Origin: a virus
Lineage: Duplodnaviria; Caudoviricetes
Reading direction: 5' to 3' (one strand)
IMG/VR virus record: IMGVR_UViG_3300025701_000014
Coordinates: 1 to 55,423 of that record
Length of the DNA stretch: 55,423 bases
A program made the position numbers and the translations under genes. The notes beneath the pieces are model-generated. The model was not told the DNA's origin and ran no database searches. It saw nothing but the letters and a program-made list of their open reading frames with translations. Below, piece after piece: positions 10,213 to 40,701 of the stretch; positions within the stretch are counted from its first letter, which is position 1; each line of letters opens with the position of its first letter.

Positions 10213-10215
10213 AAC

Positions 10216-11766: not shown

Positions 11767-11794
11767 GTTATTAAGAGATTACAAAGGAGACTTT

Positions 11795-16737: not shown

Positions 16738-18624
16738 ATGGATCAGTATCAACAGTTTATACACAAGAGCCGCTATGCACGTTGGATGCCAGAGTTAGGC
16801 CGTAGAGAAACATGGGCAGAAACAGTTAACCGTTACGTTGGTTTCTGGGAAGGACGGGGGCAAATAGATAAGGAGACAGCGGCTCAAATGTTTGATGCTA
16901 TCCATGACCTAAAGGTTATGCCATCTATGCGGTGCATGATGACAGCAGGTACTGCCTTAGCTAAGGATAACGTAGCTGGATTTAATTGTAGTTACTTACA
17001 CATCGACTCACCACGTAGCTTTGACGAGCTTATGTACGTGTTAATGTGCGGTACAGGCGTAGGCTTCAGCGTAGAGCGTAACTACATTAACAAACTACCA
17101 ATCGTATCAGAGGAGTTCCACCCCACAGATACTGTGATTGTTGTAGCTGATAGCAAGATCGGTTGGGCCTCAGCATTCCGTGAGTTAATCGCTATGCTGT
17201 ATGCAGGTAAGGTCCCCAAGTGGGATGTAAGTAAAGTACGTAAAGCTGGTGAGCGCCTTAAGACATTCGGAGGTCGTGCATCTGGTCCTGAGCCACTAGT
17301 AGATCTCTTCAATTTCTGTGTGCAACTCTTTCAGAAAGCTAGGGGTCGTAAGTTATCTAGCATCGAGTGCCATGATATTTGTTGTAAGATCGCTGACATC
17401 GTTGTTGTAGGTGGTGTCAGACGCTCAGCATTGATCAGTCTCTCTAACCTATCAGACCAACGCATGGCGAAGGCTAAGTCAGGACAGTGGTGGCTGGACG
17501 AAGGTCAACGTAGGCTCGCTAACAACTCTGTGGCGTACACTGAGAAGCCAGACTTCGAGGCGTTCCTCAGTGAGATGCAGAGCATGTACGAATCTAAAGC
17601 TGGTGAGCGTGGTATCTTCAGTCGTATTGCAGCCCAGAAGATTGCTGCCCGTAACGGACGAAGAGATGCCACTTACGAGTTTGGAACTAATCCATGTTCC
17701 GAGATCATCCTTCGAAGCAACCAGTTCTGTAACCTCTCAGAGGTAGTAGTGCGTGCAGAAGATACCCTTGAAGATCTTAAAGAAAAGATCGAGATGGCAG
17801 CTATCATCGGTACCTTGCAAGCAACCCTCACTGACTTCCGTTACCTACGTAAGTCTTGGAAAACTAATACAGAAGAAGAAGCATTACTTGGTGTCAGCCT
17901 TACAGGTATCATGGATCACTCAGTTCTGAATGCAAGGGGTGGTGTGAATGGTGAACTACAAGAGTGGCTTGAGGCAATGCGGGACACTGCTATCAAAGCT
18001 AATGAGAAGTGGGCTAAGAAACTTGGCATTGCTCAGGCTGCTGCTATTACAGCTGTTAAGCCAAGTGGTACTGTATCTCAGCTTGTCGATTCTGCTAGCG
18101 GCATTCACCCTCGCTTTTCTAAGCATTACATTCGTCGTGTACGTTCAGACAAGAAAGACCCACTGGCAGTCTTCATGCAAGAGAACGGATTTCCAGTAGA
18201 GCAGGACACCTTTAGTGAATCCTCACTGGTGTTTAGCTTCCCTGTCAAGGCACCAGAAGCTAGTGTGACTGTCAAAGAGGTAGGTGCAATGGCTCAGCTT
18301 GAGCAATGGAAAGCCTATCAGAACTTCTATTGTGAACACAAGCCAAGCATCACTGTCTACTATACAGATGATGAGTTCTTACAGGTATGTCAATGGATCT
18401 GGGACAACTTCGATATGTGCTCAGGGATCTCCCTGCTGCCCGTAAGTGACCACGTATACCAACAGGCACCCTATGAGGACATCACCCCTGAGAAGTACGC
18501 TGAGTTGCTTGAGGCTATGCCTAAGAACATTGACTGGGCTGACCTAGGTAACTTCGAAGTAGAGGATAACACCACGGGTTCTCAGGAACTAGCCTGTGTG
18601 GGTGGAGCATGTGAGATTGTCTAA
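16738..18624 (+). CDS. nrdJ: Class II (B12-dependent) ribonucleotide reductase, monomeric RTPR type
   Basis: FNCS, GTGVGFS, TNPCSEI, VKPSGT and C-terminal CVGGAC; no NrdB partner gene. Confidence 0.9.
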   Translation: MDQYQQFIHKSRYARWMPELGRRETWAETVNRYVGFWEGRGQIDKETAAQMFDAIHDLKVMPSMRCMMTAGTALAKDNVAGFNCSYLHIDSPRSFDELMYVLMCGTGVGFSVERNYINKLPIVSEEFHPTDTVIVVADSKIGWASAFRELIAMLYAGKVPKWDVSKVRKAGERLKTFGGRASGPEPLVDLFNFCVQLFQKARGRKLSSIECHDICCKIADIVVVGGVRRSALISLSNLSDQRMAKAKSGQWWLDEGQRRLANNSVAYTEKPDFEAFLSEMQSMYESKAGERGIFSRIAAQKIAARNGRRDATYEFGTNPCSEIILRSNQFCNLSEVVVRAEDTLEDLKEKIEMAAIIGTLQATLTDFRYLRKSWKTNTEEEALLGVSLTGIMDHSVLNARGGVNGELQEWLEAMRDTAIKANEKWAKKLGIAQAAAITAVKPSGTVSQLVDSASGIHPRFSKHYIRRVRSDKKDPLAVFMQENGFPVEQDTFSESSLVFSFPVKAPEASVTVKEVGAMAQLEQWKAYQNFYCEHKPSITVYYTDDEFLQVCQWIWDNFDMCSGISLLPVSDHVYQQAPYEDITPEKYAELLEAMPKNIDWADLGNFEVEDNTTGSQELACVGGACEIV

Positions 18625-19129: not shown

Positions 19130-19145
19130 GCCACGCAAGCGTGTC
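19130..19145 (+). promoter_or_regulatory. Hairpin motif A copy 4, upstream of the primase-helicase and RNAP genes
   Basis: Exact 16-mer repeat in a 39-nt intergenic gap. Confidence 0.7.
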
Positions 19146-20967: not shown

Positions 20968-23052
20968 ATGAACTGGTTAGAAAACGTAGAGCTATACCTA
21001 AGATTAAAACTAACAGGGAATCCCACTCGGGATTCCTTCGGGGTAACCCTCCTCAAGAAGTATCCCGAATCTATGGATAGGCTCCAAGAGTATGGGCAAA
21101 TAGCACACCTTGTTATCAGTCGGCAAGCTAAGAATGTAAGCGGTAATATACATTGTAAACTAACAGTAACAAGTATCGCTATTGGCAAGAGCATCCTCTC
21201 CACTCTAACCAAATCTAAAAGAAATGATTGGAAAGATGAGGTGCGCCTTGGTGACCTCTTCATCGAAGCATTCTACCGGCTAGGTTTTATTGATATTGTT
21301 AAACCTGAGTTCAGATCAACACGGCCCGTGGAGATTATACTCTTGGGTACATTCCCATCAGAACTCCCAGAGCCTGTCGTCAAGATGGCACTGCATGGTG
21401 TGTGGAATCAAAAGCCTAAAGATATTAATAGGGCTGAACAAATAATCCAGTTCAACATTGATAGTCTCAAGTACACTGTACCTATCGTGAAGCGCTGGGA
21501 TGAAGTCCTCGATGGACCCTTCAAGGATCTGTTAAAGACTAAAGCAATCAAGGCCGTTAACAAACTACAACAAGTGGGTTGGACTATCAACAAGGATGTA
21601 CTAGCAGCTGTCGAGAGCAACCCGTATATGTTCTACAAAGAGCACGACAAGTCTAGTGAGAACCTGTCAAAGAAGATTGACTACGCTTACACTGTAACAA
21701 AGGCCAAGGTCTTATCCAAAGAGGACAGCTTCTACTACGCACTGGATGTAGATTACCGTGGTCGTGTTTACTATGTTGAGAGCTACATGAACTTCCAAGG
21801 ATCGGACCTAGCAAGGGGGCTTCTGTGCTTCTCTGAGGAGGCTTTAGTTACCCCCAGTGGGTTACGCTGGCTTAAGATACATTGTGCCTCCTCGTACAAC
21901 GAGAGCTATTCTAAGGACAATATACCAGCGTGGTGTACATCGGATTACAGATCACACCTAGATGCTGAAGGATTGGATGATATCTCTGTGGACAAGATGA
22001 CCTTGAGGGACAGGGAGCTGTGGGTAGACAACAACATACTTGAAGTTTACAAAACAGCATTAACAAAAACACTACACAGCTGTGAGAAACCAGTGGCATA
22101 TCTGGCAGCTTGTATAGAACTACTTAAATATAAGGAAGCCAATGGTAATTATTACTCTCGTATGCCTGTACCAATTGATGGTAGCAACAATGGATGGCAA
22201 CACCTAGGGGCGATCTCTAAGGATGTACAAACAGCTGAGCTTGTTGGTCTTGTTCCAGTCGATATTCAGAATGACTTCTATGTGCAGACAGCAAAGAAGC
22301 TAATCGAGATTACAAAGGATGTAACTCGAAGTTCAATACTGCAAGAGATGCCCATGAAGAAAATCCGAAAGGGTATCAGTAAGCGTGGGAGCATGACAAG
22401 AGCTTACTCCGCAGGCGCTCAGAAGATCGCAGAGAATATGTATCAGGACTGTAAGGGGTATGGTTACTGTGCCGAGTATGGTATCACTGAAGAGATCTGC
22501 AAAGGTCTTGCAAGAGATCTAGTCAAGGCTATTCAGTTAGTCTGTCCCGGTCCTCTTCAAACCATGAAGTACCTACAACAACTAGCTAATGATAGGTTAG
22601 ACCAAGGCTATGGTTACATGACATGGACTTCACCCTCAGGGTTCCCTGTGATCTATACCTGCAACCATCAACGCTCAGAGAAACAACGAGGGACTATTAG
22701 TGGCATCGGCCAGATCAACCACGTAGCTAAGGTAGATACCAACGTGTCTGACCGTAGGGGTTTTATGTGTGGGATCTCACCTAACTTTATCCACTCACAA
22801 GATGCAGCGCACATGAGTTTAGTCATCGATGAATTTGATGGTGTCTTTGGGGCTGTCCACGATAGCTTCAGTACCCATGCATCGAAAGTCGATGAGCTAC
22901 TTAAGATAACCAAACGAGTCTTTGTTGAGATATACAATGAAGATAACTACTTTGATAACATCCAGAATAGGATTGAAGCAACAGCTGATCAACCAATAAC
23001 TGGTAGTTTAAACATACAAGATGTGGAGAAGTCAGATTACTTCTTCGCCTAA
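20968..23052 (+). CDS. Single-subunit T7-type RNA polymerase, compact (694 aa)
   Basis: DYRGRVY, QGSDLARGLL, PIDGSNNGWQH, KRGSMTRAY, PNFIHSQDA, VHDSF and C-terminal YFFA. Confidence 0.95.
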   Translation: MNWLENVELYLRLKLTGNPTRDSFGVTLLKKYPESMDRLQEYGQIAHLVISRQAKNVSGNIHCKLTVTSIAIGKSILSTLTKSKRNDWKDEVRLGDLFIEAFYRLGFIDIVKPEFRSTRPVEIILLGTFPSELPEPVVKMALHGVWNQKPKDINRAEQIIQFNIDSLKYTVPIVKRWDEVLDGPFKDLLKTKAIKAVNKLQQVGWTINKDVLAAVESNPYMFYKEHDKSSENLSKKIDYAYTVTKAKVLSKEDSFYYALDVDYRGRVYYVESYMNFQGSDLARGLLCFSEEALVTPSGLRWLKIHCASSYNESYSKDNIPAWCTSDYRSHLDAEGLDDISVDKMTLRDRELWVDNNILEVYKTALTKTLHSCEKPVAYLAACIELLKYKEANGNYYSRMPVPIDGSNNGWQHLGAISKDVQTAELVGLVPVDIQNDFYVQTAKKLIEITKDVTRSSILQEMPMKKIRKGISKRGSMTRAYSAGAQKIAENMYQDCKGYGYCAEYGITEEICKGLARDLVKAIQLVCPGPLQTMKYLQQLANDRLDQGYGYMTWTSPSGFPVIYTCNHQRSEKQRGTISGIGQINHVAKVDTNVSDRRGFMCGISPNFIHSQDAAHMSLVIDEFDGVFGAVHDSFSTHASKVDELLKITKRVFVEIYNEDNYFDNIQNRIEATADQPITGSLNIQDVEKSDYFFA

Positions 23053-24011: not shown

Positions 24012-24055
24012 AAGGGGAACCTCGGGCATTGCGCCTTGGGTTCCCCTTTTTTTTT
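24012..24055 (+). terminator. Strong terminator where the two transcription directions converge (possibly bidirectional)
   Basis: AGGGGAACC...GGTTCCCCT stem plus a long T run; A-rich on the other side. Confidence 0.85.
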
Positions 24056-27000
24056 AATGCATGTAATACTGAAACACAGACTTACCAGCGGCGTTAATAT
24101 CTGACCGCAATGCTTTCTTATTATGGTTTACTTTATTACGAAGTTGAGTCAGTCTCTGATTGAGAGCCATCTCTTTGTTGAGCAACTTATGGAAGTGCCT
24201 CACCTGCTTAACAGTAGCCTGTGTCGGGTTAGTGCTAAACTTATAACCAACATCACGCATACCCTTTTGGATGTTAGCCAGTGATTGATCCACGTTCAAC
24301 ACATCAACATTCTCAAGGTGTCTCTTCAAAGCTACAGGGGTTGCATCACCATACGCATCCACCTCAAGGCCAGTCAAAGATCCCATCATCTGGTGGACCT
24401 CGTTCAGACCAACATTAACTACAGAGTCTGGTGAGAGTCCCTTCAGTGTTTCTTCAAATGCTAACTCGGCTCTCTTGTTAGTATCTATAATCTCCTGCAT
24501 GAAGTCCCAGTCCATGGTGGCGTTCACCCAGTTCTCATTAACATCGTTCAACACAATATCATAACCATTAGCATCCATCTTAAAGGCATCGTAGATCTGG
24601 TAAAGATACGGATCACCACGGGAAGCATCATTAAGCCTACGCCAAGTGTTACCAGTAAATGTCAAAGCAGCAGTTGCTGCATCGATAGACTGTACCGAAG
24701 CTACAACAGAACGGTTCATTGTCTTAACACCAACCATGGGCTTGCCATTAACCAACTCAGCAGCTGCCGCAGATCGTCTAAGGGAACCATACCTTTCGAT
24801 AGAACGCTGAGACCTCTCTCCCTTAGTGAACTCTGTCCACTTAACCTCACCGACCTTACCACTTACAGAACCCCCAAGAGAGATCTCCATGCCAGTAGCA
24901 GTTGTCATTGTGAATGGTATATCTGCAAGAGCTGCATTAGCTGCCACACCTTTCAAGATTGATCTTGTTTGGATTGCCTCGTTAGACAGGACCTCGTGCA
25001 GACCAGTCGTGTACGTTGGTAATAGCAGCGCTGACAGTGATTTATTATCTGTCACTGACTGCAATGCAGCAAACGCTTCCTGATAACCAACAAGGTTGTT
25101 ACTCTCAAGTTCCTCTTGGGACATAAGGGCAGCTTCTTCGTTGACACGGAACATAGCGTCTGAGATATCACTAACAAAAGATTTAATATCACGGCCATAA
25201 CCAAAGGTCATTGTCGTGTATTTGTTGAGTGCTCTGTTGTTGAAGACCGCTCTAGCTACTGTGTAAACGTGAGGTGCAGCATCCCCCAAGAGGGACTCAC
25301 TGCCGGCAATGCCGTCCACATCTATCACATCAGCTAAGGTCTCGGCGAGCTGATCCCTGATGTCACCCTTATCTAGGAGGACTTTATCCTGACTCCTCAA
25401 CACACCAGTCATAAAGGCCATTGCCTTAGACCCCATGAGCATACCCCATGCAGCCAAACCGTTAGTCTTACCATCGATGTATGCGTTAAAGAAGGAACTA
25501 TGCCCAGCTGGGTTGTTGTCAACGATCACAGCTTTGTGGAACTTAACAAAGTCTAAGAGACCATCTATGTACAGAGGACCATCCTCACCCGCCTTGGCAA
25601 TAGCTGCAATCAACGCACCGTCAATCTCTGGATCTAAAGCTAGTCCAGAAAACTTCGGGAAGTTTGGATCTAACAAGGACACACCGTCCTCGATGGCTTG
25701 GTATATCTCATCCGCTTTCTCAGGAGAGATCGCCTCGTCAAGTAATGCTTGTAGCCGTTTACCCCAAGAGAGAAGCTGGGGTGTTGCCCTGAGGAGCATT
25801 GCAGGTCTCTCTGAGGGTAATGCTTCTGACCCACCATCAACTAAGTGTAGTGCATACATCTGCTCCAAGTTACGATGGACCCGGTTACCACGTTTAGCAA
25901 CAGCCGGTTGAGCACCTCTTGTAACAAAACGAACAAGCTTCGAGGAACTGGGATCAAACAAAGATTGCTGTGGTGCAGTACGTCCGTTAAAGCCCTGCAT
26001 GTAATACGTCAAGTAGTTAATACCCTTGCGTTCTTTTGCGATACCAAACAGGTGCTGAGCTGTTGATGTTTTGATTGATTCAAGAACAACGTTAGCACTG
26101 TACTCCGTCTGCTCTGGGTTCTCAGCGAGGGCTGCTTTCTCTTGAGCAATAAGGGCGGACATCTTTTTAGGACCAATGTTGTGCATGTTAGCAAACAAAT
26201 CAACGACAGGCTGGCCACTACCGGGCTGACTAAGGAGTGCTGGCAGCAAGGTCGCTAGTGCAACCCGGCTTCTAGTACGGTCAACAATGTGGCCTACCGT
26301 GCTTTGGTTACGCATCGCTTGGTCAATCAGCCTAGTGTTTACACGTTTCACTGGAGAACGTACAAGGGTTTTGAACTCACCAACTAGCTTACCATTAACT
26401 GGTTTAGTTTTAAGCGGGGATACTAGATTCTTACCGAAAGCCTTCTTCCGTAAAGCATCTGCTTGCTTAAAAACAATAGCACCTTCTGGGGTTAGCTGGT
26501 ATACCTTTGGCTTCTTAGCATCACCGGCACTAACCACATCCTCGCTTTCACGGATAAGATCTGGGTTAACCTTGACATAGTTTGAGAGCATGGCAGCACC
26601 AAGTGCTGTCGCCTGCTCAGAGGTCAGATCAGCAGAGACCGTGGCATTGTTGTTGCGTTGGTACTCACGGCTTATCGCTTGCCCCACACGCTCAGCTACC
26701 TTAGCAGCAGGTACTTGAGTCACGAGGGCCATCTCTGGTTCTGTGACTGGTTCACCAGCAGCCTTGAGAACTACATCCTGAGTCTCAGGGATTCCCTGTA
26801 GGTAATCAGAAAGCGTGTTCTCAATGGTAGCCGAAGCTACAGTTAAGAAGGTAGGTGATAGTTTCTTATCTACCTTGCTTGGATCTAAAACACTCTGAGT
26901 TGTTTCAATAGCACTCCAAGGACCTACTTCATTAGTCCCTGTCAGAAGGTCAAGGGCAGCCACAAGTGGTCTTGCCTGCACATCAGGTGATCCTGCAAGA

Positions 27001-27440
27001 ACCCGTGGATCTTGGTACAGACCAACACCAACTGCCCCTGAGTCAAAGGCATCACGTAGCGCCCTCGCTCTAACGAACAGACCGTTATTGCCTTCTGTTG
27101 CAGATCTCTTAGAGTCTGCTTTGTACTTGTAAATGTTTGAGGGACCTCCCGGCGCAGCTAAGTTTTCCCTAATACCGGGAAGCGCTTCTGCTTCTTGCTG
27201 AGCTTTTATTGCCGCCGCTCTCTCAGCTTCTGCGGCGATACCTTCAAGCACCCCCGCTTCAACAAGAGGCTCTGTCCCTACGGTAGGCGCTGTGGCAACT
27301 GAGGGTTGCTGTACAGGCGCTTCTGCTTCTTGTATTGGGGTTACCTCAGGGGTAACACCAAGTGTCTCTACGGGTGTTTCAAAGCCCTCAGAGGGCACCG
27401 GCATACCGGGCCTCCCCTGAGCTGTAATTATCTTACCCAT
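24054..27440 (-). CDS. Second, divergent single-subunit RNA polymerase; putative virion-packaged RNAP
   Basis: Ordered motifs GFNGR, YIDGKTNG (A), RALNKYTTMTFGYG (B), VQSIDAA...IYDAF (C); last gene of the internal-virion cluster. Confidence 0.82.
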   Translation of the reverse strand: MGKIITAQGRPGMPVPSEGFETPVETLGVTPEVTPIQEAEAPVQQPSVATAPTVGTEPLVEAGVLEGIAAEAERAAAIKAQQEAEALPGIRENLAAPGGPSNIYKYKADSKRSATEGNNGLFVRARALRDAFDSGAVGVGLYQDPRVLAGSPDVQARPLVAALDLLTGTNEVGPWSAIETTQSVLDPSKVDKKLSPTFLTVASATIENTLSDYLQGIPETQDVVLKAAGEPVTEPEMALVTQVPAAKVAERVGQAISREYQRNNNATVSADLTSEQATALGAAMLSNYVKVNPDLIRESEDVVSAGDAKKPKVYQLTPEGAIVFKQADALRKKAFGKNLVSPLKTKPVNGKLVGEFKTLVRSPVKRVNTRLIDQAMRNQSTVGHIVDRTRSRVALATLLPALLSQPGSGQPVVDLFANMHNIGPKKMSALIAQEKAALAENPEQTEYSANVVLESIKTSTAQHLFGIAKERKGINYLTYYMQGFNGRTAPQQSLFDPSSSKLVRFVTRGAQPAVAKRGNRVHRNLEQMYALHLVDGGSEALPSERPAMLLRATPQLLSWGKRLQALLDEAISPEKADEIYQAIEDGVSLLDPNFPKFSGLALDPEIDGALIAAIAKAGEDGPLYIDGLLDFVKFHKAVIVDNNPAGHSSFFNAYIDGKTNGLAAWGMLMGSKAMAFMTGVLRSQDKVLLDKGDIRDQLAETLADVIDVDGIAGSESLLGDAAPHVYTVARAVFNNRALNKYTTMTFGYGRDIKSFVSDISDAMFRVNEEAALMSQEELESNNLVGYQEAFAALQSVTDNKSLSALLLPTYTTGLHEVLSNEAIQTRSILKGVAANAALADIPFTMTTATGMEISLGGSVSGKVGEVKWTEFTKGERSQRSIERYGSLRRSAAAAELVNGKPMVGVKTMNRSVVASVQSIDAATAALTFTGNTWRRLNDASRGDPYLYQIYDAFKMDANGYDIVLNDVNENWVNATMDWDFMQEIIDTNKRAELAFEETLKGLSPDSVVNVGLNEVHQMMGSLTGLEVDAYGDATPVALKRHLENVDVLNVDQSLANIQKGMRDVGYKFSTNPTQATVKQVRHFHKLLNKEMALNQRLTQLRNKVNHNKKALRSDINAAGKSVFQYYMH

Positions 27441-27442: not shown

Positions 27443-30400
27443 TTACTCCTTATTATATCCCCATTCATCAGCTGGTTGAGTTATATTCTCAACAAGTGTA
27501 TCACGTAGCTTTGGTAGGCTACCGAGAGGTGTTAGTTTAGCAGCAGCCTTAGCTGCCTTGGTGTAGTCACCCTCGATGAGGGAACCTGTTGCTGTCATAA
27601 GTTTATCTAAAGTACCAAGAGCTGGTGCTTCCCCAGATGTTTTATTCCAAGCCCAGTCAGCATAACCCTGAGATCGAGACTCATACATTGGTGCTATAAA
27701 ATCAATAACACGCTGGCCAGTACCGAGAAGACCAGATGAAGACACAGCCCTCCGGGCTTTCTCCATATCGTCAAGGTATGGGTTTTCTGTACCCCACTTC
27801 ATCCTATCCTTTAATTCCTGAGAGGCATACCCCATAGCAATCATGAGGACCATCATAGAAAATGCATGGTATTTCATTTGAGGACTACCACGTTTGACAT
27901 ACTCTCCCCAAAGCTTAGGGATAAATGTAGATTGGAAAACAGCAATAAAGCCTGAGAACTGAGTGAACATTGCAAACCGAGGATCATGATAGATCATAGG
28001 TCGGTTAGCAGTTGTTGGCATCATGATGGCATCATTGATAAATGCAAAGGTACCATTAGTTATTTCATTTCTCAGCTGCTCTGCCTCTACTTCTGTCAAG
28101 GGATAGTTAAACGCTTGTTTCTTAGCTAGCTCTGTAAACAACTCAACATTAATGTGCAGGTTGCGTAAGTGCTCCTCAGCTTCCTCAACAGCTTTAGTCT
28201 TGGGAGTGCTGCTATCCCACAGGTAGATTGTCTCTGCGTGGTTCAGCATATAGTCCCAAGCAATAGATGCACGGACTGCCCTTGTCATTTGGGTCCAACC
28301 TTGCAAACCGTTCCACTTAAAGAACTGAGAGATTAGGTTTTGTTTCAATGCATTGGTTTCAGTCACACCTGTTTTAGATGCAGCTCCAGCTTCTTGCTCG
28401 TTGTAACCAAGCTCTTGGATAATACGCTGACCGTTAGTTTCAGTTTTGGCTAGCTCTACCCTAGTGATTGTGGAGAATATCTCCTTACCACCATTATAGA
28501 ACATAGTCCCAAGTTCAACACCGGCTGCCTTCAAACCACCCTTACCGAATATCTGTTGGTTAGTTAATCCTTTAAACAAAAGCATAAGCTCTACGGTAGA
28601 ACTAACAGTTGCTGTACTCAAGGCTCCAAGAATCGTAAAGGTTAAGAAGTTCTTTTGGATCTTCTGTGCCAACTTACCAGCGTCTGTGGTTGCCCTCTTG
28701 TAGTTACCTGACTCAGCATCAAGGTAATCCTTCATCTTCTTAGCGATCCTAATAAGATCAGCTTCAGATACGCCCTCCGCCCTTGCCTTCTCTAGCTGTG
28801 CTGCGATAACACTACCGTTAATACCTACATACTTTTGATATGCAACAAAACGTGCAGCAGACTTAATAGCGTAGTTGACATTTGTGAAGATGTCCTGCTC
28901 TAAGAACTTATCAAATGCAGGATTCTCAGAGAGCCCCAAGGTCCTTGCCCTATGTGAGCCGGGTATTGGGGTACCGTCTGTTACCGAGAATGCCTTATCA
29001 TCAGGTAATAAACCATCGATGTCATTCTTGTTAGGGTTCTCAATAATGTTAGTTGCAATATCATTAGCCATTGCTTCAGTCATCCCGTGGGACTCACCAT
29101 ACTCTGACATTAAGGCGGTTATAAAACCAGCCCTGTCACCGGCAACAGCGTTCTTGTTAAGTGATTTAAACTTAGAGAAGTAGTTACTAATCTCACCAAC
29201 ATCACCATACTTTTGTTGTTCCTTCAACATACTATCAGACAATCGTTGTAGTCTTTCAATCTCCTTAATATAGAGTTCCCTGTTGGGCATCTCTGGTATC
29301 TTAGATGTATCGAGAACACCCTTGTCGTTAACAGCGTCCCGCCAGATATTGTAGAACTGACGGCTTAAGAGTTCCCTTTTCTTACGGCTAGGTCTGATAC
29401 CCCCATTAATGGTTGAATAAAACTCTGTTGGTTTTGTGTAGGCGTTCTCCCACTTTGCAACTAACAAGTGTTTAAAAGATTCAAAATCATTACCACTGTA
29501 TGTTGTTTGAAGACCACCACCAAACGATGCAGCTAACTTACGAATAGATGGAGAGATATTTTTCAACCGATCTAAGAATATGAAACGAGTAGATCCACGC
29601 CAGAAGCGAGTGCTTGAGACAGCCACATCAAACACGGTGTCCGCCTTTGTACGTTCGCCTTTAGGCTCTTCTTTCTCAGCAAGCTCATTAAAGATATTCT
29701 TATCAGGAGATACAGCAGCTGCCCTTCGAGCTTCCTCTAGGTTCTCATCTATTGTAGGTATGAACCCATTGTTAGTTCTCCTTTCTTCTTCGGCCCACTT
29801 ACCAGAGTCGGACAAACCACTACCGTCTGCTTCAGTACCTCCCCAAATAGCTGCCTCCCACTGGGCTTGGTTGGTCACACCACTGGCTGTCCCTAAAGAA
29901 CCACCAAGGGCAGCACCAGCCACAGCAGCTTGGGTCATACGGTTTAACGCCTCATTAAAGTCAAATGAAGAATCCTCAATGTGAGCCGCAGTATAACCAA
30001 TCAGTTCCTGAACCGCTTCAGTAGCGCCCTCAGTTACAGTACCAGCAGCACCACTCTTTAAGATATCTTTAATGGCATCACGACTTCTTAGTTGATCTTT
30101 AAGAATACGTGAAGCGTCTGTGGAGATACCTGCAAGCTGTGACTTAGACATTTGAATAACATCTTTCAGTGCAGCCTGAGTCATTCCTTCAGTGACTTCA
30201 ATCCCAAGCTCTTTAGCTTTCTTAATTGCTAATTGCTCAGCAGCAGCGTTAAGCATTTTCTGTGGGGTATCAAGCTTACCAAAACCACCAATAAGTTTAG
30301 TAACACCAAACAAATCTAAAGCACCTTGGATTGCACCACCACCAACAGCAAGTGCCCAGTTCTTAGCATTATCTGCTTGTTCGTTCCAGATAGACCCAGC

Positions 30401-31402
30401 ATACACGCTTGCAGGAACCAGTAAAGAAAGACCACCTGTATACGGGGCTGCTACCAAGGAAGCTGTTGACATAGCCATGTACGGTAATGACATACCTGCG
30501 TTATTACTTACAAACTCCCAAGCATCTCCAGCGCTATCTACATCCTGATAGTCCAAAAGAACTTGAGCACGGTTAGCCATCTCGGTACCTTTGCGGTAGA
30601 CTCCGTTTTCACCAAACTCCTTAACAGAATCAAGACCTAAAGTGTCTCCAAGCATTTCAGCAACACCGTATGAAGCCTCAGCAAAACCAACCATCGCAGC
30701 CCCTACGGAACTAGAGAAAGGATTGTACGCTTGGTTCTTTAAGTTCCTATCCTTGTGCCGGAACATAACTGTATCCGTTAAGTACTTGCTTGGGTTAGCA
30801 GCGTACTGTTGTTCGTTGAGTGCTAGTTCTTTAAACTTAGTTGCATCGTAACCCTCAGCTTCTCGTGCTGCATTAACTTGAGCGGCTAGCTCATCAAACA
30901 AAACTTGATCTTCACCTCTAGGAACAGTGTCCCCCATCCACTTAGATACTGCAATAGCTGTAAGGTCTTCCTTCGTCACCCCCTCGACAGGTTCAAACAC
31001 ACCAGACGTCAGTAGCTTTGTGATGAAGTCTTCACCTTTGTGATTGACAAGACGTCCTGTCCTGCGCCCAAATGCTGCATCAATACCAGTATCTTTAATT
31101 TCTGTATAGCCATGCTTAGTTGCAAAATCCTTAACAGCCCCTAAGGCTGCTAAACCTCCTGCGGTTCCAGTTTTCTCTACCCATTCTCCAGATCTATCTT
31201 GTACCCACTTAGCTACCTCAGGTGCATCAAATCCTTGAAGACGTACATTGGGCCCCCCATCGGAGGCCACAACAGTATCTGCATCTAACCAATCGGAAAC
31301 CACTAAGGGTTCCTCGATTGGCGCTTTTTTAATAGAGAGGTCTTGGCTAGCTTGTACTTGTTGGGCTTCTTGAAGAATCCCTTGTAATACATTATCAACC
31401 AT
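27443..31402 (-). CDS. Large internal virion (ejection) protein with N-terminal thermonuclease-like domain
   Basis: 1319 aa, helical with Gly/Ala-rich hydrophobic stretches; N-terminal DADT...VRLQGFDAPE...DAAFGR. Confidence 0.7.
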   Translation of the reverse strand: MVDNVLQGILQEAQQVQASQDLSIKKAPIEEPLVVSDWLDADTVVASDGGPNVRLQGFDAPEVAKWVQDRSGEWVEKTGTAGGLAALGAVKDFATKHGYTEIKDTGIDAAFGRRTGRLVNHKGEDFITKLLTSGVFEPVEGVTKEDLTAIAVSKWMGDTVPRGEDQVLFDELAAQVNAAREAEGYDATKFKELALNEQQYAANPSKYLTDTVMFRHKDRNLKNQAYNPFSSSVGAAMVGFAEASYGVAEMLGDTLGLDSVKEFGENGVYRKGTEMANRAQVLLDYQDVDSAGDAWEFVSNNAGMSLPYMAMSTASLVAAPYTGGLSLLVPASVYAGSIWNEQADNAKNWALAVGGGAIQGALDLFGVTKLIGGFGKLDTPQKMLNAAAEQLAIKKAKELGIEVTEGMTQAALKDVIQMSKSQLAGISTDASRILKDQLRSRDAIKDILKSGAAGTVTEGATEAVQELIGYTAAHIEDSSFDFNEALNRMTQAAVAGAALGGSLGTASGVTNQAQWEAAIWGGTEADGSGLSDSGKWAEEERRTNNGFIPTIDENLEEARRAAAVSPDKNIFNELAEKEEPKGERTKADTVFDVAVSSTRFWRGSTRFIFLDRLKNISPSIRKLAASFGGGLQTTYSGNDFESFKHLLVAKWENAYTKPTEFYSTINGGIRPSRKKRELLSRQFYNIWRDAVNDKGVLDTSKIPEMPNRELYIKEIERLQRLSDSMLKEQQKYGDVGEISNYFSKFKSLNKNAVAGDRAGFITALMSEYGESHGMTEAMANDIATNIIENPNKNDIDGLLPDDKAFSVTDGTPIPGSHRARTLGLSENPAFDKFLEQDIFTNVNYAIKSAARFVAYQKYVGINGSVIAAQLEKARAEGVSEADLIRIAKKMKDYLDAESGNYKRATTDAGKLAQKIQKNFLTFTILGALSTATVSSTVELMLLFKGLTNQQIFGKGGLKAAGVELGTMFYNGGKEIFSTITRVELAKTETNGQRIIQELGYNEQEAGAASKTGVTETNALKQNLISQFFKWNGLQGWTQMTRAVRASIAWDYMLNHAETIYLWDSSTPKTKAVEEAEEHLRNLHINVELFTELAKKQAFNYPLTEVEAEQLRNEITNGTFAFINDAIMMPTTANRPMIYHDPRFAMFTQFSGFIAVFQSTFIPKLWGEYVKRGSPQMKYHAFSMMVLMIAMGYASQELKDRMKWGTENPYLDDMEKARRAVSSSGLLGTGQRVIDFIAPMYESRSQGYADWAWNKTSGEAPALGTLDKLMTATGSLIEGDYTKAAKAAAKLTPLGSLPKLRDTLVENITQPADEWGYNKE

Positions 31403-31413: not shown

Positions 31414-33708
31414 CTATGTTTGTTTATTCAATCTATCAATTGACCAAGTTAAGAATGCGTTAGATCCCTCTATGGCTTTATCTTCCCAGTTTGCTCTTTC
31501 AGCATCACTCAAGCTTCTCCAAATTATAGCAAGGTTGTTTAAAACGACCTGTTGGTCTCCTCCACGCCTTGCTCCCTTTTGGCTCAATGTATTATACAAA
31601 GTGCTTACTTGTTCGGGGTTTGGGTTTCCAGCATACAAAGTGTCCTTTAGCTGAGGAGAAATGTCTTGAGCTACAAGATCCCGAAGAACCATCTTAATTA
31701 CTTGAGGATCTTCCAGATTAACATCAGGGCTTCTTGCCCTGAGCGCTTTCATTCCATCTAAAACAGTTGGCAAAAGATCTGTCATCTGTCCGGGATCCAT
31801 CTTGTTATCAAGAGAATACTGGACCATCGCATTAGCAACAGCTGTTGGGGAGAAGGTTGGATCAAGTCTCTCATTCTTCTTTTTACCCTGAGCTGATTCC
31901 ATTTGAGATTTAACCTCCTTGAGCTGTGGTAGCAAAGTGTCCATAGCATAATTACGCATAGACTTGTAATCCTCAAATGTATTAAACTCTGAGACATCCA
32001 CGGGCTTCCCCTTTTGGTCAAGCCATTGGACAACACCTGTGTTGGCGTCTTTATACTCCCTAAGCTTAACTTGTCTTTGATCCTTATCTACAAAGACTTT
32101 AGGCAAATCCACTGGAGCCCATGCAGGCTTTAACTTAAGGTCGGCTACATCACCTGTATCTTTATATTTCTTAAGGCTATCTGGAGTATACTTTGCAGTG
32201 CCTGTCAGTTTATCTACAGTGGCTAATTTCTTTTCAATACCAGAAGCATAACGCTTAGTTACATAGTCTAAAGAACCACCATGACTATTACCCAGAAGGC
32301 GTGAACCAAGGTACATGACAGCCGCCTCAGATAACTTGTCCTTATCAATGATAGAAGACAGACCTTCCTTAAAGAAGTCCTTAACTTTGTCAAGAGCTGT
32401 TGGTGGAAGTGCTCCCTCTTTCTTTTTCCCATCGCCTTCCCCTAACAATTCCCGTTGTTGCTTTTCAGCTTCTTCAGCTATCTTAATAGCTTCATCTTCA
32501 TCTAAAGTGATTTCAGGCTTAGGTGTTTCAAGCTCAGGTTTATTAATAGTGTTCACATCAATCTCAACACGATAAGGATCAACTGGGGGCATCACCCCCT
32601 CTTCAGCAAGAGAAGGTACAGCCTGTTCTTTATCAAGGGCTTCCCTTTCTCGCCACGCCTTAGGTTTATATATATCCTTAAGACTCTCAATAATATTAGA
32701 TTGACTTGGATAACCAGCCGCCTTAGCTTCTTGACGTCTAGATAAAGCCTGTTCGGCCATTTGTTGAGCAACATTACCCATAGGTTTCAGAAGGGGGCCA
32801 TCAGGTTCTGGTATAGATATTGGTGGGTTATTAAGAGAGTCAACTGCTGTCATCCCCAATGCCTTCTTAACTATCTCTTCCTGAGAAGGAACTGAACCAA
32901 GACCAAGACTATCTAAATAATCAAAATCAACAGAGACCCCTTGACCCTTGGGGATATCTGCAGGCTCAAAATCAACAGAGAACTCTTGACCCTTGGGGAT
33001 ACCTACAGGCACTGGGACGGCTAGCTGCTCTACAATAGTTGGGTCGTTTAATACAACTGAAAGATCTTCAGCAGTAGCGCCCTTTTGTAAAGCCTCTACA
33101 ATTTTATCTTGTAGTTGATTATATGCAAAATCAGACTCAATTGCTTTGTAATCCTCTGGGCGCAGTACAGCTCCACCCTCTGCTAAATATTTATCTGATA
33201 AACTATTCAACACGAGGCCCCCAAGAATAGACCCCAGCCCGGAACCTGACTTAAGCAACTCAAGGATCATGTTCTTGTTACTATTATCATCATCTTTTTT
33301 ATAGCGATTAGAATACTCTTGCATCTCACCACCAACTTCACCACCTTCATTGTGGTATCTTTCCTTAACGCCGCCACCACATGCCCGATAGTCAGGTATG
33401 CTTCCACCCTGTGCTTTCTGAACTGCTCTGCCAACATCATTCATTTGTTCTATCTGAGGCTCAAACATCCTAGTGGCCTCTGCATTCATTACAAACTCGC
33501 CGGGTGTTAACCAAGCGGGTACAGTGTCTGTTCCTTTAGGTTCACCCGGAAAGTCAGGTACACCAGTCAGTTGGGGTATAGCAATCCCACCAAGGAACTG
33601 TTCAATAATCTTTGAGGAACGAGAGTCCCCCTGTGCAGAGTCCGTACCGAACTCAATAGACACTTGAGATCCGTGTCTATCCTTGTGCATAATTTTCTTA
33701 ATACTCAT
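31414..33708 (-). CDS. Putative internal virion protein
   Basis: Position in the cluster; GTDTVPAWLTPGEFV motif and repeated xxGGxV motifs. Confidence 0.6.
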   Translation of the reverse strand: MSIKKIMHKDRHGSQVSIEFGTDSAQGDSRSSKIIEQFLGGIAIPQLTGVPDFPGEPKGTDTVPAWLTPGEFVMNAEATRMFEPQIEQMNDVGRAVQKAQGGSIPDYRACGGGVKERYHNEGGEVGGEMQEYSNRYKKDDDNSNKNMILELLKSGSGLGSILGGLVLNSLSDKYLAEGGAVLRPEDYKAIESDFAYNQLQDKIVEALQKGATAEDLSVVLNDPTIVEQLAVPVPVGIPKGQEFSVDFEPADIPKGQGVSVDFDYLDSLGLGSVPSQEEIVKKALGMTAVDSLNNPPISIPEPDGPLLKPMGNVAQQMAEQALSRRQEAKAAGYPSQSNIIESLKDIYKPKAWREREALDKEQAVPSLAEEGVMPPVDPYRVEIDVNTINKPELETPKPEITLDEDEAIKIAEEAEKQQRELLGEGDGKKKEGALPPTALDKVKDFFKEGLSSIIDKDKLSEAAVMYLGSRLLGNSHGGSLDYVTKRYASGIEKKLATVDKLTGTAKYTPDSLKKYKDTGDVADLKLKPAWAPVDLPKVFVDKDQRQVKLREYKDANTGVVQWLDQKGKPVDVSEFNTFEDYKSMRNYAMDTLLPQLKEVKSQMESAQGKKKNERLDPTFSPTAVANAMVQYSLDNKMDPGQMTDLLPTVLDGMKALRARSPDVNLEDPQVIKMVLRDLVAQDISPQLKDTLYAGNPNPEQVSTLYNTLSQKGARRGGDQQVVLNNLAIIWRSLSDAERANWEDKAIEGSNAFLTWSIDRLNKQT
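32921..33001. repeat. 36-bp direct repeat with 45-bp period inside the CDS
   Basis: 32921-32956 versus 32966-33001 differ at 2 positions; encode IPKGQxxSVDF. Confidence 0.85.
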
Positions 33709-34637: not shown

Positions 34638-35327
34638 TTAACAATTACAAATTTCCATTGGGCCACAGTTACAAGCCTTCTTAATCTTACCACCAGTAGC
34701 GAAAGCAGAAGTTTTATCTTCTTCTTGATTAGAGAAAATTGACTTACCAACATTGTATCCCTTGTTAGTGAGGTGTTCTAAAAGGTTCTTGGGTTGTGCG
34801 ATATAAGAATCTTTAGCAGTCTCCTGCATCTGTTGGGTTAGACCAGCCATACCTTTTTGAGCACCCTCTGCAATCCTAGCGAAGATACCTTTTGATGCGG
34901 ACTCACCGATAGTTGGGGCCACCATAGTGGACGCTAGGTTAGACTTTGCAGTTTCTGTAAGTGCTCCCTTAAGTCCTTCACCAGCAAGACCACTTGCAGC
35001 ACCACTTGCAGCACCACTTGCAGCACCACTTGCAGCACCACTTGCAGCTTCAGCAGCTCCGGGTGGCATAAGGTTAGCAGTCAATGCACCCAAGGCTAAA
35101 CCCTCAGGGGTAACGCCAGACAAGTCTCCCTTACCAGCAAGGCTTCCACCAAGGGAAGAACCAGCAGCAACACCAAGAGGGCCAAGAGGGGCACCAAGAA
35201 CACCACCAACAACGCTGCCAAGGGTGCCAAATAAAGAGTTGCCACCACCCTCTTGTGGTAGTTGTGACTGAGCTATGGGGATTCTATCAAATTTCTTAAG
35301 TGGCTTTCTTTGAAGTTGACTTAACAT
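34638..35327 (-). CDS. Gly/Ala-rich putative internal virion protein with glycine zipper
   Basis: GTLGSVVGGVLGAPLGPLGVAAGSSLGG; position in the cluster. Confidence 0.6.
   Translation of the reverse strand: MLSQLQRKPLKKFDRIPIAQSQLPQEGGGNSLFGTLGSVVGGVLGAPLGPLGVAAGSSLGGSLAGKGDLSGVTPEGLALGALTANLMPPGAAEAASGAASGAASGAASGAASGLAGEGLKGALTETAKSNLASTMVAPTIGESASKGIFARIAEGAQKGMAGLTQQMQETAKDSYIAQPKNLLEHLTNKGYNVGKSIFSNQEEDKTSAFATGGKIKKACNCGPMEICNC
34989..35048. repeat. Perfect 12-bp tandem repeat x5 (ACCACTTGCAGC; encodes AASG)
   Basis: Five exact copies read directly. Confidence 0.95.
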
Positions 35328-37840: not shown

Positions 37841-40701
37841 TAAACTAAGCTCCCAAGTTTAACCCTCAGTGTAGTTGCATCATAGATCTTTATAGTCTGA
37901 GATGAAATCTCCATCCTTGCACCAGAAGCTGCTGACCTGACATAAAGACCTGACGGTGATGTGCCAGATATATTAACCAAGCTAACATCAACAGTTCCTG
38001 TCTTCAACAGGCCACCATCGATTGTTGTAATCTTGGTACTGTTGGGGTCTGCAAACTCATTGTTAAGATTAGAAAAGGTAACCAAACCTTCAAACACAAA
38101 AGATGAAAACGGTGTAGAAAAGATAATCGTTTGAGAACCACCGAAGGTTGTCTCTGCAACATAGTAAGCAGTTGCCCAATAGTGAGCATCACCACCGCTG
38201 ATTGCTGGTGGGGTTCTAGACCAGTTGGCAGTTAGCCCACCAAAACTTGCAGTAGCAAAGTTATAACTAGTTGCTGAAGGGGTCGCTGGTGTACTTGTAG
38301 CAGTCAAAGAGTAATAGATGTAGCCGTGTGCAGTACGAGGGCCAGTGGCTCCCGTATCGCCAGCAGGTCCTGTAGGCCCTGTAGGGCCAGTGGGTCCTGT
38401 AGGTCCCGTAGGTCCAGTCGGCCCAATCTCTCCGGGTTCGCCGTCTTGCACAAGCTTAGTGACAGCAGACCACGTAAGCGTTGTATCAGTACCTGTAGTA
38501 CCGTTAACACTTGCTGTAGTTGTTGCTGTCCACAAGGGATCTGTGCTTTCTGGAGGACTGCTGTACCACCCTGTTGGGGGTACAATTGTATTTGTACCAA
38601 AGTTATAGCTGCCACCAATAGGTGCCGCTGGCAATGTTGGCCCACGTTTAAAGATTGAAAACTTAAACACAGACTGACCGTTAGTGCCATCGATACCACT
38701 CTTAGCTTGAAGTACCGGTGAGGACCATGTTGGGTTACTTGAAGTACCCGTGTCTCCCAAGATGGAGAAAGTAGCAAGGCTAATGTATAGAGGATCAGTT
38801 CCGGGTGGAGGTACGTCTGACCATCCCGTAGGTGGTGTTAGTACATTTGTCCCAAAGTTAAAACTACCACCGGTAGGTGTAGTTGTAATTTCTGTAAGGC
38901 TTCTTTTAAACACATAAGCTTCAAACACAGAACGTGCAGAGTTACCGTCAATACCATCTTGGTACGCCCTTGCAGGTGTGCCCCAAGGTATTAGTGAATC
39001 TGTTCCTGTATTCCCCAATACACTTGCAAGACCGATACTAACATACACCGGGTCAGTTCCAGTTGGTATTGTGCTACTCCAAGTAGATGGTGTGGAGAGG
39101 AAAGAGTTACTGAAGTTAAAGCTACCACCAACGGGTGCCTCGGTTAACTCTGTCGCACTTCTCTTATAGATGTTAAGGACGGCTGTTGAAACACCAGAGG
39201 TGCCATCAATACCATCAACACCATTAGATGCTAAAACTTCTGGTACGGTCCATGTCAAACTACTATCAACACCTGTTGGGCCTGACACACTGGCTGTTGT
39301 CGAGGACACATACAAGTCATCCTCACCCGCAGGGACAGTGGTAGACCACCCTACAGGTGGCTCAGCAAAGTTACTTCCAAAATCATAACTACCGCCAGTG
39401 GGTGCTGTGGTTATGGGTAAGGCGCTTCTTCTAAACACATTGTACAAGTATACGCTATTGCCATCAGTTCCCGGAGCACCATCTAGACCATCTTCAAAAG
39501 ACTTAGTTGGTGTTGACCAACTTGTAGAAGTATCAATACCAACTTGACCTACAATACTAAAGATACCGCTTATCATCCATGCAGGGTCAGTACCTGTAGG
39601 TATGTCTACAAACCAGCCATCTGGTGGTGTAAGGGTATTAGTGCCAAAGTTAAACTCACCACCTGTTGGTGTTGCTGGTTGCGTTGCGTCTCGTCTAAAA
39701 GCGAAAGCCTCAAAGTAAGAGCTACCTAATGCACCATCAATACCATCAGTTCCATTTTGAAATGCTAACTCAGCAGGGGACCATGTAATGTCACTATCAG
39801 TTCCTGTTTGCCCAATCGTTGTAGCAATCGCACGGCTGATATAGACTGGGTCAGTTCCCGGCGGAATACCAACGTACCAATCAGTTGGTGGGGTTAACGT
39901 AGTTGTACCAAAGTTGTAGCTCCCTGTCTCAGGTGTAAGGGGTACTGTTGTAGATCTCTTGTAGACTACAAGTAATGCTGTACTAACACCATTAGTTCCA
40001 TCAGTACCATCAACACCATCGAACACAAGTTTAGTCACCGTCCACTCAGTATCTGGGATAACATGAGTACCTGTTCGGTCTGCTGCTACAGCTGTAGCTA
40101 GCCAAAGAGTACTACCACTACCAACATTATTAAGGTCAGACCAACCGTCATTCGTAACTGTCCGTGTGTATGTGCCATCTGCAAAGGTATATGTTAAAGA
40201 GCCTAAAGGTGATGCCGGAGTAGTCCCGGCAGTCCTTTGGTAAAGTGTAACAACTGCTGTGTTAAACCCATCTAGTCCAGCCGTGTTAGCTGTTGCAATT
40301 AGTGCAGGCTCTGACCAACTGTCGAAAGAGATCACCTCTGTGTCCACCACATCAGCAATGTTTACTTGTATCGCAAAGAGATAATCCCCAACCGACACAT
40401 CAGGTATCGACCTGTACCACCCACCGAAGTTCGTAGTAGAGCTAGTTTCCGAATTAGTAAGTGTTGTTGTGGAATACGTGTAGACTGTCTCTACAGCTAT
40501 CTGCTCTTCAAATGGTAACGTTGACGCTGAGTACCTTTTATAAAGAACAAGTGTTACTGCATTGATTGCATTGCTTGCTGAACCAACAAAGGCAGCAGCT
40601 TGAGCCGCAATCTGTGAGCTAGTCGTAACACCGTTACTCACTTCATTCATCCAACTGTCTAGTTGAACGTCTCCTGTTACGGGTGGTCTAATAATAGTCA
40701 T
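37840..40701 (-). CDS. Repeat-rich tail fibre/spike protein with collagen-like linkers
   Basis: About nine ~88-aa domains separated by GxDG triplets; 12 Gly-X-Y triplets at 38335-38442; C-terminal LRVKLG. Confidence 0.75.
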   Translation of the reverse strand: MTIIRPPVTGDVQLDSWMNEVSNGVTTSSQIAAQAAAFVGSASNAINAVTLVLYKRYSASTLPFEEQIAVETVYTYSTTTLTNSETSSTTNFGGWYRSIPDVSVGDYLFAIQVNIADVVDTEVISFDSWSEPALIATANTAGLDGFNTAVVTLYQRTAGTTPASPLGSLTYTFADGTYTRTVTNDGWSDLNNVGSGSTLWLATAVAADRTGTHVIPDTEWTVTKLVFDGVDGTDGTNGVSTALLVVYKRSTTVPLTPETGSYNFGTTTLTPPTDWYVGIPPGTDPVYISRAIATTIGQTGTDSDITWSPAELAFQNGTDGIDGALGSSYFEAFAFRRDATQPATPTGGEFNFGTNTLTPPDGWFVDIPTGTDPAWMISGIFSIVGQVGIDTSTSWSTPTKSFEDGLDGAPGTDGNSVYLYNVFRRSALPITTAPTGGSYDFGSNFAEPPVGWSTTVPAGEDDLYVSSTTASVSGPTGVDSSLTWTVPEVLASNGVDGIDGTSGVSTAVLNIYKRSATELTEAPVGGSFNFSNSFLSTPSTWSSTIPTGTDPVYVSIGLASVLGNTGTDSLIPWGTPARAYQDGIDGNSARSVFEAYVFKRSLTEITTTPTGGSFNFGTNVLTPPTGWSDVPPPGTDPLYISLATFSILGDTGTSSNPTWSSPVLQAKSGIDGTNGQSVFKFSIFKRGPTLPAAPIGGSYNFGTNTIVPPTGWYSSPPESTDPLWTATTTASVNGTTGTDTTLTWSAVTKLVQDGEPGEIGPTGPTGPTGPTGPTGPTGPAGDTGATGPRTAHGYIYYSLTATSTPATPSATSYNFATASFGGLTANWSRTPPAISGGDAHYWATAYYVAETTFGGSQTIIFSTPFSSFVFEGLVTFSNLNNEFADPNSTKITTIDGGLLKTGTVDVSLVNISGTSPSGLYVRSAASGARMEISSQTIKIYDATTLRVKLGSLV

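Follow-up and report, generated by a model that had tools for sequence, protein, structure and literature searches.

The viral record analyzed here (IMG/VR IMGVR_UViG_3300025701_000014), called the window throughout, comprises 55,423 bases at an estimated completeness of 96%. Its minus strand contains an uninterrupted open reading frame (ORF) of 1128 aa, designated P0001, which closes a leftward operon of virion and presumed ejection-protein genes and converges on the gene of a T7-type RNA polymerase (RNAP). An earlier note, made from the sequence, had proposed P0001 as a second, stand-alone RNAP packaged in the virion and matching in size the catalytic core (mini-vRNAP) of the giant virion RNAP (vRNAP) of phage N4. 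The ORF and the motifs quoted there are all present in the translation, with agreeing DNA coordinates, and the motifs follow the order claimed for a single-subunit RNAP, with N4/T7 spacing and residues that are invariant across the family of P0001.

24054-27440, minus strand: candidate virion RNA polymerase gene P0001, last gene of the leftward virion/ejection operon
25980-25994, minus strand: GFNGR, residues 483-487, counterpart of the T/DxxGR motif; R487 invariant
25458-25475, minus strand: motif A, DGKTNG, residues 656-661; D656 and G661 invariant
25194-25235, minus strand: motif B, RALNKYTTMTFGYG, residues 736-749 (R736-x3-K740-x3-M744-x3-Y748-G749); K740, M744 and Y748 invariant
24681-24695, minus strand: block before motif C, VQSID, residues 916-920; D920 invariant; aligns with IHSQDAAH of T7-type RNAPs
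24582-24596, minus strand: motif C, IYDAF, residues 949-953; D951 invariant; aligns with KIFDG of N4 (D951) and VHDSF of T7-type RNAPs
24537-24539, minus strand: invariant N968, 17 residues past the motif C Asp, as in N4
24057-24071, minus strand: extreme C terminus, QYYMH (consensus QYYAH); Q1124, Y1125 and H1128 invariant in 50 members

P0001 belongs to an unnamed family with intact polymerase motifs

A word-seeded search recovered 160 homologues of P0001 from marine metagenomes, all without a name. Most are about 1000-1300 aa long, with a few shorter entries of 722-798 aa, and nearly all full-length members fall within ~1000-1540 aa. An exhaustive HMMER search of 1.84 billion representatives returned 236 clusters at E ≤ 1e-3, 140 of them at E ≤ 1e-30. 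The conservation alignment, built from 105 members with 21-41% identity to the query, contains 13 invariant columns only: R124, R487, R504, D656, G661, G670, G679, K740, M744, Y748, D920, D951 and N968. The motif resemblance goes beyond chance, since seven of these 13 columns are motif residues (R487, D656, G661, K740, M744, Y748 and D951), with D920 and N968 adding two more.

The arginine motif (FNGR, R487) corresponds in the alignments to YRGR in T7-type RNAPs and to VGR in N4 and is followed directly by SSSKLVRF, which matches NPQSSKLVRE of N4. Motif A is of the form DGxxxG across the family, the RNAP type rather than the DNA polymerase type, and aligns with D559 of N4 (EADGVTNG) and with DGSNNG of T7-type RNAPs. 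The spacing of motif B equals that of N4 (R666, K670, Y678 and G679); as established for T7 RNAP and Pol I, the RxxxKxxxMxxxYG spacing with its Met is the RNA polymerase version and not the DNA polymerase version. The N-terminal ~190-230 residues are weakly conserved and rich in Pro, Ala and Glu.

Profile comparison places P0001 closest to the N4 virion enzyme

The family profile was compared by HHalign with profiles of 44 N4-like mini-vRNAP cores from IMG/VR and of 66 distinct T7-type RNAPs encoded alongside P0001 homologues. Against the N4-like cores it aligns over as many as 940 columns, covering both proteins end to end, with a probability of 95.8-97.1% and E-values of 7.9e-9 to 1.3e-10. 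The match to the co-resident T7-type RNAPs spans ~640-680 columns (probability 82-93%, E 1e-5 to 5e-8), while the N4-like cores and the T7-type RNAPs match each other at a probability of 2.4% and E 0.019. Controls comprising reversed profiles, the Pol A DNA polymerase family of the phage and the two neighboring virion protein families gave E-values of 0.13-0.52. The alignment pairs GR487 with GR424, D656 with D559, Y748-G749 with Y678-G679 and D951 with D951 of N4. Two features are common to P0001 and N4 only, namely SSKLVR after the arginine motif and the invariant Asn at +17 of the motif C Asp. Part of the N-terminal domain of the family aligns with T7-type RNAPs as well (LGDxxKEAY with LGDLFIEAFY). 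The size of 1128 aa compares with 1106 aa for the N4 mini-vRNAP domain (PMC4496689), so that both the relationship and the size anticipated in the earlier note are borne out, as is its statement that motif A of N4 reads DGxTNG (N4-like consensus YVEADGVTNG).

Annotation resources give partial agreement. PHROG 414 (T7-type RNA polymerase) matches residues 636-853 of P0001 at E 3e-7. Among 42 diverse members scanned singly, 15 match PHROG 414, two match PHROG 2206 (virion RNA polymerase) and none matches any other PHROG; two of the 42 match Pfam PF00940 at E ≤ 0.01, the best at 4e-4. A feature search of the ESM Atlas returned 30 nearest clusters, of which the first seven are unnamed (presumably the P0001 family) and the other 23 carry PF00940. 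Searching 50,697 phage records with P0001 by tblastn gave 0 matches. Judged by these profile alignments and by the PHROG and ESM Atlas matches, P0001 is a bona fide, very divergent homologue of single-subunit RNAPs, closest to the core of the N4 virion enzyme and of the same length.

The gene closes the virion operon beside a separate T7-type RNAP

20968-23052, plus strand: co-resident T7-type RNA polymerase, 694 aa, 12 Cys; converges on the P0001 gene; Pfam PF00940, E 4e-57
24012-24055, between the converging operons: strong two-way terminator-like hairpin, AAGGGGAACC...GGTTCCCCTT, with an A-run before and a T-run after
27443-31402, minus strand: 1319-aa virion protein, 0 Cys, PHROG 6958 (virion structural protein); directly upstream of the P0001 gene and syntenic in 62 of 80 loci
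31414-33708, minus strand: 764-aa protein of the presumed ejection-protein cluster, 1 Cys; upstream of the 1319-aa gene; 27 of 31 family members without Cys

Genomic context was examined in 80 IMG/VR loci recovered with the P0001 family profile. The order is the same in all 80: the P0001-type gene stands last in the virion operon, and beyond it lie a T7-type RNAP gene converging on it and the genes for primase-helicase, exonuclease and DNA polymerase. A gene for a ~1300-aa protein precedes it in 62 loci, where the flank allows. The position at the end of the ejection-protein cluster, which the earlier note had read from the window, thus holds throughout the set. A separate T7-type RNAP lies alongside in 80 of 80 loci. 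The polymerase also stands alone, as the note had proposed: a search for fused homologues of 1975-5000 aa found none of at least 1975 aa, which is weak evidence. The second polymerase of the window, also named there, is recognized by Pfam as RNA_pol (PF00940).

This T7-type RNAP is 23% identical to T7 RNAP over 608 residues (E 2e-39). It is short, 694 aa vs 883 aa in T7, and the T7 N-terminal domain mostly lacks a detectable counterpart because the alignment begins only at T7 residue ~308. That it might represent a fused form of the N4 polymerase RNAPII was ruled out, as its match to T7 RNAP (E 2e-39) compares with E 1e-6 to 1e-7 for N4 gp15/gp16.

The layout corresponds to that of N4, in which gp50, the vRNAP, is the last gene of a leftward virion operon, after the ejection proteins gp52 and gp51, and converges on replication genes; gp50-52 of N4 have been called a conserved ejection operon (PMC13434306). 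HHalign comparison of the 1319-aa and 764-aa proteins with T7 gp14, gp15 and gp16 and with N4 gp50, gp51 and gp52 detected no significant relation. The best of these comparisons, between residues 440-525 of the 1319-aa family and residues 327-414 in the N-terminal domain of N4 gp50, is weak and non-significant (E 0.0054).

Cysteine-free composition accompanies the virion-operon position

Cys is absent from P0001 and from 61 of 65 family members (0.05 per 1000 aa). It is likewise missing from 43 of 44 N4-like polymerase cores, from N4 gp50, gp51 and gp52, and from T7 gp15 and gp16. The co-resident T7-type RNAPs contain 14 Cys per 1000 aa, with 0 of 66 lacking Cys, and T7 RNAP has 12; the cytoplasmic enzymes of at least 300 aa in the window all contain 14-22 Cys per 1000 aa. 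A Cys-free enzyme encoded in a virion operon is expected of a protein that leaves the cell. No hydrophobic membrane-like segment was found in the proteins of the ejection cluster, P0001 included. In the report on phage StenR_269, a vRNAP was guessed from size and lack of Cys alone (PMC10747016). For P0001 we infer packaging into the virion and injection because three independent indirect lines agree: the N4 gp50-like position, the Cys-free composition, and an N4-like hairpin with a T-run at the head of the early strand, described below.

A hairpin motif heads the early gene blocks

6869-6884, plus strand: hairpin copy A, GCCACGCAAGCGTGTC then TCTTTT; head of the early strand, no plus-strand gene upstream
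8382-8397, plus strand: hairpin copy B, 55 nt before ORF 8452-8937
11751-11766, plus strand: hairpin copy C, before ORF 11762-12193; position kept in relatives, with a ribosome-binding site and ATG after the motif
19130-19145, plus strand: hairpin copy D, before the primase-helicase and T7-type RNAP genes; position kept in three related loci (L002-L004), stem and loop variant

The 16-mer GCCACGCAAGCGTGTC has four exact copies in the window, on the plus strand only, where 0.25 would be expected by chance even allowing three mismatches. One copy stands at the head of each of four rightward gene blocks and none after the last rightward gene. Written as CCACGC-AA-GCGTG, the motif has the potential to fold into a stem of 5 bp (CACGC/GCGTG), and a T-rich run comes after it. 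An exact search of IMG/VR located the 16-mer in 17 loci; five are relatives holding eight copies, all on the early-gene strand. These copies either open the early region, divergent from terminase, or precede by ~15 nt the ribosome-binding site of the ORF 11762-12193 homologue. The other 12 loci are unrelated contigs, about chance level.

In closer relatives the same positions, among them the site ahead of primase-helicase in L002-L004, hold the variants CCACAC-TTC/TAC/TGC/TTT-GTGTG or CCACGC-TAT-GCGTG, and TCTCTTT comes next in every case. The stem is paired in 115 of 115 cells (23 distinct rows). One stem position is G:C in 11 rows, A:T in 11 and G:T in one, and its covariation score was reached by 0 of 500 shuffles. 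Of the 14 copies whose loop has 3 nt, 12 show GNA in the loop on the template strand, with the T-run after it. Across genomes with differing flanks, 16-23 nt of hairpin sequence are exactly conserved, which fits recognition by a protein.

N4 early promoters consist of a 5-7-bp stem, a 3-nt loop with a template G...A pair, and a template A run before the start (PMC4496689). The N4 left end contains GTTGC-TTC-GCAAC then TTATGG at 90-108 and GAAGC-TCC-GCTTC then TTTTG at 559-576, the layout seen in the window motif; we infer that these two hairpins are N4 promoters, as their layout fits the published description. Searching the first 82 loci for exact copies of the two window motifs, this one and the T7-like class below, returned almost nothing, and degenerate and collection-wide searches were required; repeat mining in 10-kb flanks of relatives yielded mostly chance repeats.

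A second motif class resembles T7-group promoters

6966-6979, minus strand: T7-like promoter-like motif, TAGTCCCTATAGGA, pointing at terminase and the late operon
7111-7124, plus strand: variant T7-like motif with 2 mismatches, pointing into early genes
11722-11735, plus strand: T7-like motif, 16 nt upstream of hairpin copy C
42916-42929, minus strand: T7-like motif before the late gene 40701-42869; position kept in L191, L195 and L219

The second class, TCTCGcTAGTCCCTATAGGA, which resembles T7-group promoters, occurs at 6979 (minus), 7111 (plus, 2 mismatches), 11722 (plus) and 42929 (minus), and precedes terminase and a late gene. The exact 15-mer of this class is found in 29 loci, 14 of them relatives, the closest of which carry it at positions matching those of the window. 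Two complete but more distant relatives show versions of their own on both strands: seven copies of ATATACCCCTTATAGA, two of which represent a single site in the terminal repeat, and four copies of AAGTTCCTTATAG. A scan of the window for sigma-70-like sites gave 24 vs 32 in shuffles, with none on the plus strand before 10452. The presence of two phage-specific signal classes fits two phage polymerases.

In the region between terminase and the early genes, which diverge there, four words resembling GGGGTTCTGTGGGG are found at 6708-7034. This interval may contain the physical genome ends, since the equivalent region of the complete relative G001 coincides with the direct terminal repeat of that record.

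A packaged RNAP as the favored reading, and its alternatives

We regard it as reasonably probable that P0001 is a stand-alone virion RNAP, the counterpart of the N4 core, which is packaged, ejected and reads hairpin promoters before the T7-type RNAP reads late promoters. P0001 would be a catalytically competent enzyme equivalent to the ~1100-aa core of the N4 giant, synthesized late as the last product of the virion/ejection operon and then packed into the capsid. Ejected with the DNA, it would transcribe the rightward early/middle strand from DNA-hairpin promoters (CCACGC-AA-GCGTG plus T-run). That strand includes the gene of the T7-type RNAP, which in turn would read TAGTCCCTATAGGA promoters to express the late genes. 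A marine phage with a T7-type RNAP of its own thus probably carries P0001 into the host cell as a transcription starter.

Several observations weigh against this account. PF00940 does not match P0001 itself, which stays below the Pfam threshold, and phmmer and family-profile hmmsearch against the sequences of solved structures gave chance matches only, to neither N4 nor T7 RNAP. In one RNA library the region is represented by five short contigs at depth 2-4, two lying within the P0001 gene and all possibly from DNA carry-over; they are no evidence for transcription. The hairpin loop of the window is a 2-nt AA (or a CAAG loop on a 4-bp stem) and not the GNA triloop of N4, and the stem covariation involves one pair and probably few independent events. 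The hairpin motif lies upstream of primase-helicase in just three of 66 examinable loci, and was not found in G001 and G003, two complete relatives whose early strands contain repeated words of another kind. A hairpin with a T-run may also act as a weak terminator, and a terminator scan flags copies C and D as terminator-like. The proposed pairing of polymerases with motifs, the hairpin with P0001 and the T7-like motif with the T7-type enzyme, is drawn by analogy with N4 and T7.

The terminator flags lead to the alternative that deserves most weight, although we place it below even chances: the hairpin and T-run could serve as a terminator or attenuator, stabilize the 5' end as a stem, or be bound by another factor, while the polymerase would rely on different, unrecognized signals. 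With a T7-like motif 16 nt ahead of it, copy C would be in the leader of the transcript from that motif, and many relatives that have the polymerase are without the hairpin motif. Yet copy A has no plus-strand gene upstream, the last plus-strand gene is followed by a different strong terminator and no copy, and 16-23 nt are kept exactly where the flanks differ, as suits a site read by a protein. The terminators of the window, another classical one of which stands at 8944, are long hairpins unlike GCCACGCAAGCGTGTC.

The role of the protein itself admits further explanations. It is unlikely, in our estimate, that P0001 is packaged as an RNAP-derived ejection protein with a mainly mechanical task (an inner ejection channel and/or genome pulling), leaving promoter-specific early transcription to the host RNAP. 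Its place in the ejection cluster, its lack of Cys and its poorly conserved Pro/Ala/Glu-rich N terminus would suit such a task, and N4 vRNAP is also implicated in genome injection (PMC4496689, PMC13434306); every catalytic residue is nonetheless strictly kept, among them the Tyr that discriminates ribose and the Arg and Lys that bind NTP, which argues for RNA synthesis. P0001 moreover contains no hydrophobic membrane-like segment, the head of the early strand (plus strand, 6600-10451) contains no sigma-70-like site for a host enzyme, and DNA entry driven by transcription would still require promoter recognition. Slightly less probable again is an active RNA polymerase, or a primase-like one, that stays unpackaged and acts late inside the cell, for instance in late transcription or in priming replication or packaging. 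Invariant catalytic residues are compatible with this, and a division of labor is conceivable in a phage with another RNAP; against it stand the gene order of all 80 loci, where the gene is part of the virion/ejection operon and closes it, the absence of Cys from 61 of 65 members where cytoplasmic enzymes of the window have 14-22 per 1000 aa, and the fact that the nearest known relative is a packaged enzyme. That the motifs arose by chance or composition in an unrelated large virion protein seems scarcely credible: Pfam, NCBIfam and HMMER searches against solved structures with P0001 retrieve nothing relevant, but the profile E-values of 1e-5 to 1e-10 compare with 0.13-0.52 for controls, the four motifs are ordered, spaced as in N4/T7 and invariant in the family, and PHROG and language-model matches point to RNAPs only.

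Relation to N4, T7-type and other packaged polymerases

The mini-vRNAP of N4 gp50 (residues 998-2103; Schitoviridae) is the best profile match to P0001, aligned from end to end. The two resemble each other in the T/DxxGR motif with SSKLVR, in motif A (DGxTNG), in motif B (RxxxKx7YG), and in the motif C Asp with Asn at +17, and likewise in lacking Cys, in being encoded last in a leftward virion operon that converges on replication genes, and in coexisting with a T7-like RNAP. N4 has such a second polymerase, RNAPII (PMC4496689), so the pairing of a virion RNAP with a T7-like RNAP in the window is closer to N4 than the earlier note had realized.

P0001 differs from gp50 in lacking its ~1000-aa N-terminal and ~1400-aa C-terminal domains; the N4-like vRNAPs of reference genomes measure 2842-3820 aa with N- and C-terminal domains (PMC10654107), and at 1128 aa P0001 does not share this giant-polypeptide feature. 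It reads YIDGKTNG, with Tyr in place of the Glu of the "ExDGxxxG" signature used as a filter to define N4-like vRNAPs (PMC10654107), and its overall identity to gp50 is too low for BLAST or HMMER. The genome of the window, at 55 kb, has a T7-type DNA polymerase and primase-helicase, and the partner RNAP is a single full-length T7-type chain, whereas N4 RNAPII has two subunits. By sequence, P0001 appears to be the closest relative of the N4 virion RNAP while departing from two features by which that family is defined, the giant multidomain chain and the ExDGxxxG signature, and residing in a different genomic background.

All catalytic motifs of T7-type RNAPs (PF00940), the 20968-23052 enzyme among them, are common to P0001. 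The differences are the N- and C-terminal extensions of P0001, its QYYxH end vs a FAFA-type end, its 0 Cys vs 12 in the 694-aa enzyme, and its location in the virion operon and not among replication genes. Packaged polymerases injected for host-independent early transcription are also part of the strategy of crAss-like phages, of the phiKZ/AR9 jumbo phages and of Thermus phage P23-45; the strategy proposed here is alike, but their enzymes, two-barrel or multisubunit, are not homologous to the single-subunit right-hand family.

A cultured relative and the significance of the family

The nearest cultured phage is Roseobacter phage CRP-7 (MK613349), with a portal 55% and an RNAP 34.5% identical to those of the window. 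Its gp33, a 1235-aa "hypothetical protein" and the only cultured relative found, occupies the same slot as the last gene of the late operon, convergent on the T7-like RNAP gp30. BLASTP of P0001 against gp33 gave nothing significant, and a relationship emerges only from comparison of the two family profiles, which covers 701 columns (probability 89%, E 2.3e-6). The gp33 family keeps D678, K762/R766...Y774-G775, D949, H978-D979 and N996 invariant, N996 being at +17 of the Asp; it differs from P0001 in having the motif B Lys and Arg in exchanged positions and HDA at motif C. A direct link between the gp33 family and the N4 profile was not found (E 0.29). In the consulted text of the CRP-7 paper, ORF30 is the sole named RNAP (PMC6918029).

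A wider proposal, which we consider doubtful but worth stating, is that CRP-7-type marine podoviruses run their whole program without host RNAP, using first an injected ~1100-aa mini-vRNAP on extruded hairpins and then a T7-type RNAP, and that the family represents an unfused, ancestral-like link between T7 and N4. N4 gp50 would then stem from fusion of such a polymerase with neighboring ejection-protein domains. In profile space the family joins N4 (E about 1e-9) and the T7 type (E about 1e-5), while N4 and the T7 type match at E 0.019.

To our knowledge, virion-packaged single-subunit RNAPs have been treated as a hallmark of N4-like Schitoviridae only, and always as ~3500-aa giants. In the open-access literature, supplements aside, we found neither an N4-type polymerase of ~1100 aa described as standing alone nor a report of CRP-7-type phages with a second RNAP. 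When N4-like viruses were surveyed in metagenomes, all homologues shorter than 2500 aa were removed (PMC10654107). Were P0001 a packaged RNAP as favored above, the virion-RNAP strategy would extend to abundant 55-60-kb marine podoviruses with an enzyme of mini-vRNAP size. The family would provide an enzyme already minimal in nature, of use in biochemistry and in building hairpin-promoter transcription tools, as well as an intermediate between T7 RNAP and N4 vRNAP for tracing the evolution of the giant enzyme. A large "hypothetical" core gene would also gain a function, and for one example of it, gp33 of the cultured roseophage CRP-7, the prediction is directly testable.

Other features of the window and its relatives

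Both ends of the window (1-806 and 55009-55423) cut a minus-strand ORF, with 3-806 running off the end; the record is thus permuted or slightly incomplete and not bounded by true ends. Scans of the window with Rfam (at gathering thresholds) and for tRNAs returned nothing. In the record of L007, G001, the early strand has three intergenic copies of TAACCGACAAAA(T/C)GCAT, which may be the early signal of that lineage. The ribonucleotide reductase of CRP-7 (L001, 35552-38170) is annotated as two pieces, gp44 and gp46, on the late strand, and that of the window is one 628-aa gene at 16738-18624 on the early strand. The N terminus of the 1319-aa virion protein (...NVRLQGFDAPE...) is reminiscent of the thermonuclease/SNase-type motif. 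Within the virion operon, the gene at 34638-35327, encoding a Gly/Ala-rich protein of 229 aa, contains five tandem copies of the 12-nt unit ACCACTTGCAGC at 34989-35048. A 2279-aa tail-fibre-like protein with many PHROG tail-fibre matches is encoded at 45805-52644 on the minus strand, and a 13-14-nt word recurs in its gene at 46508, 47444, 48335 and 48878.

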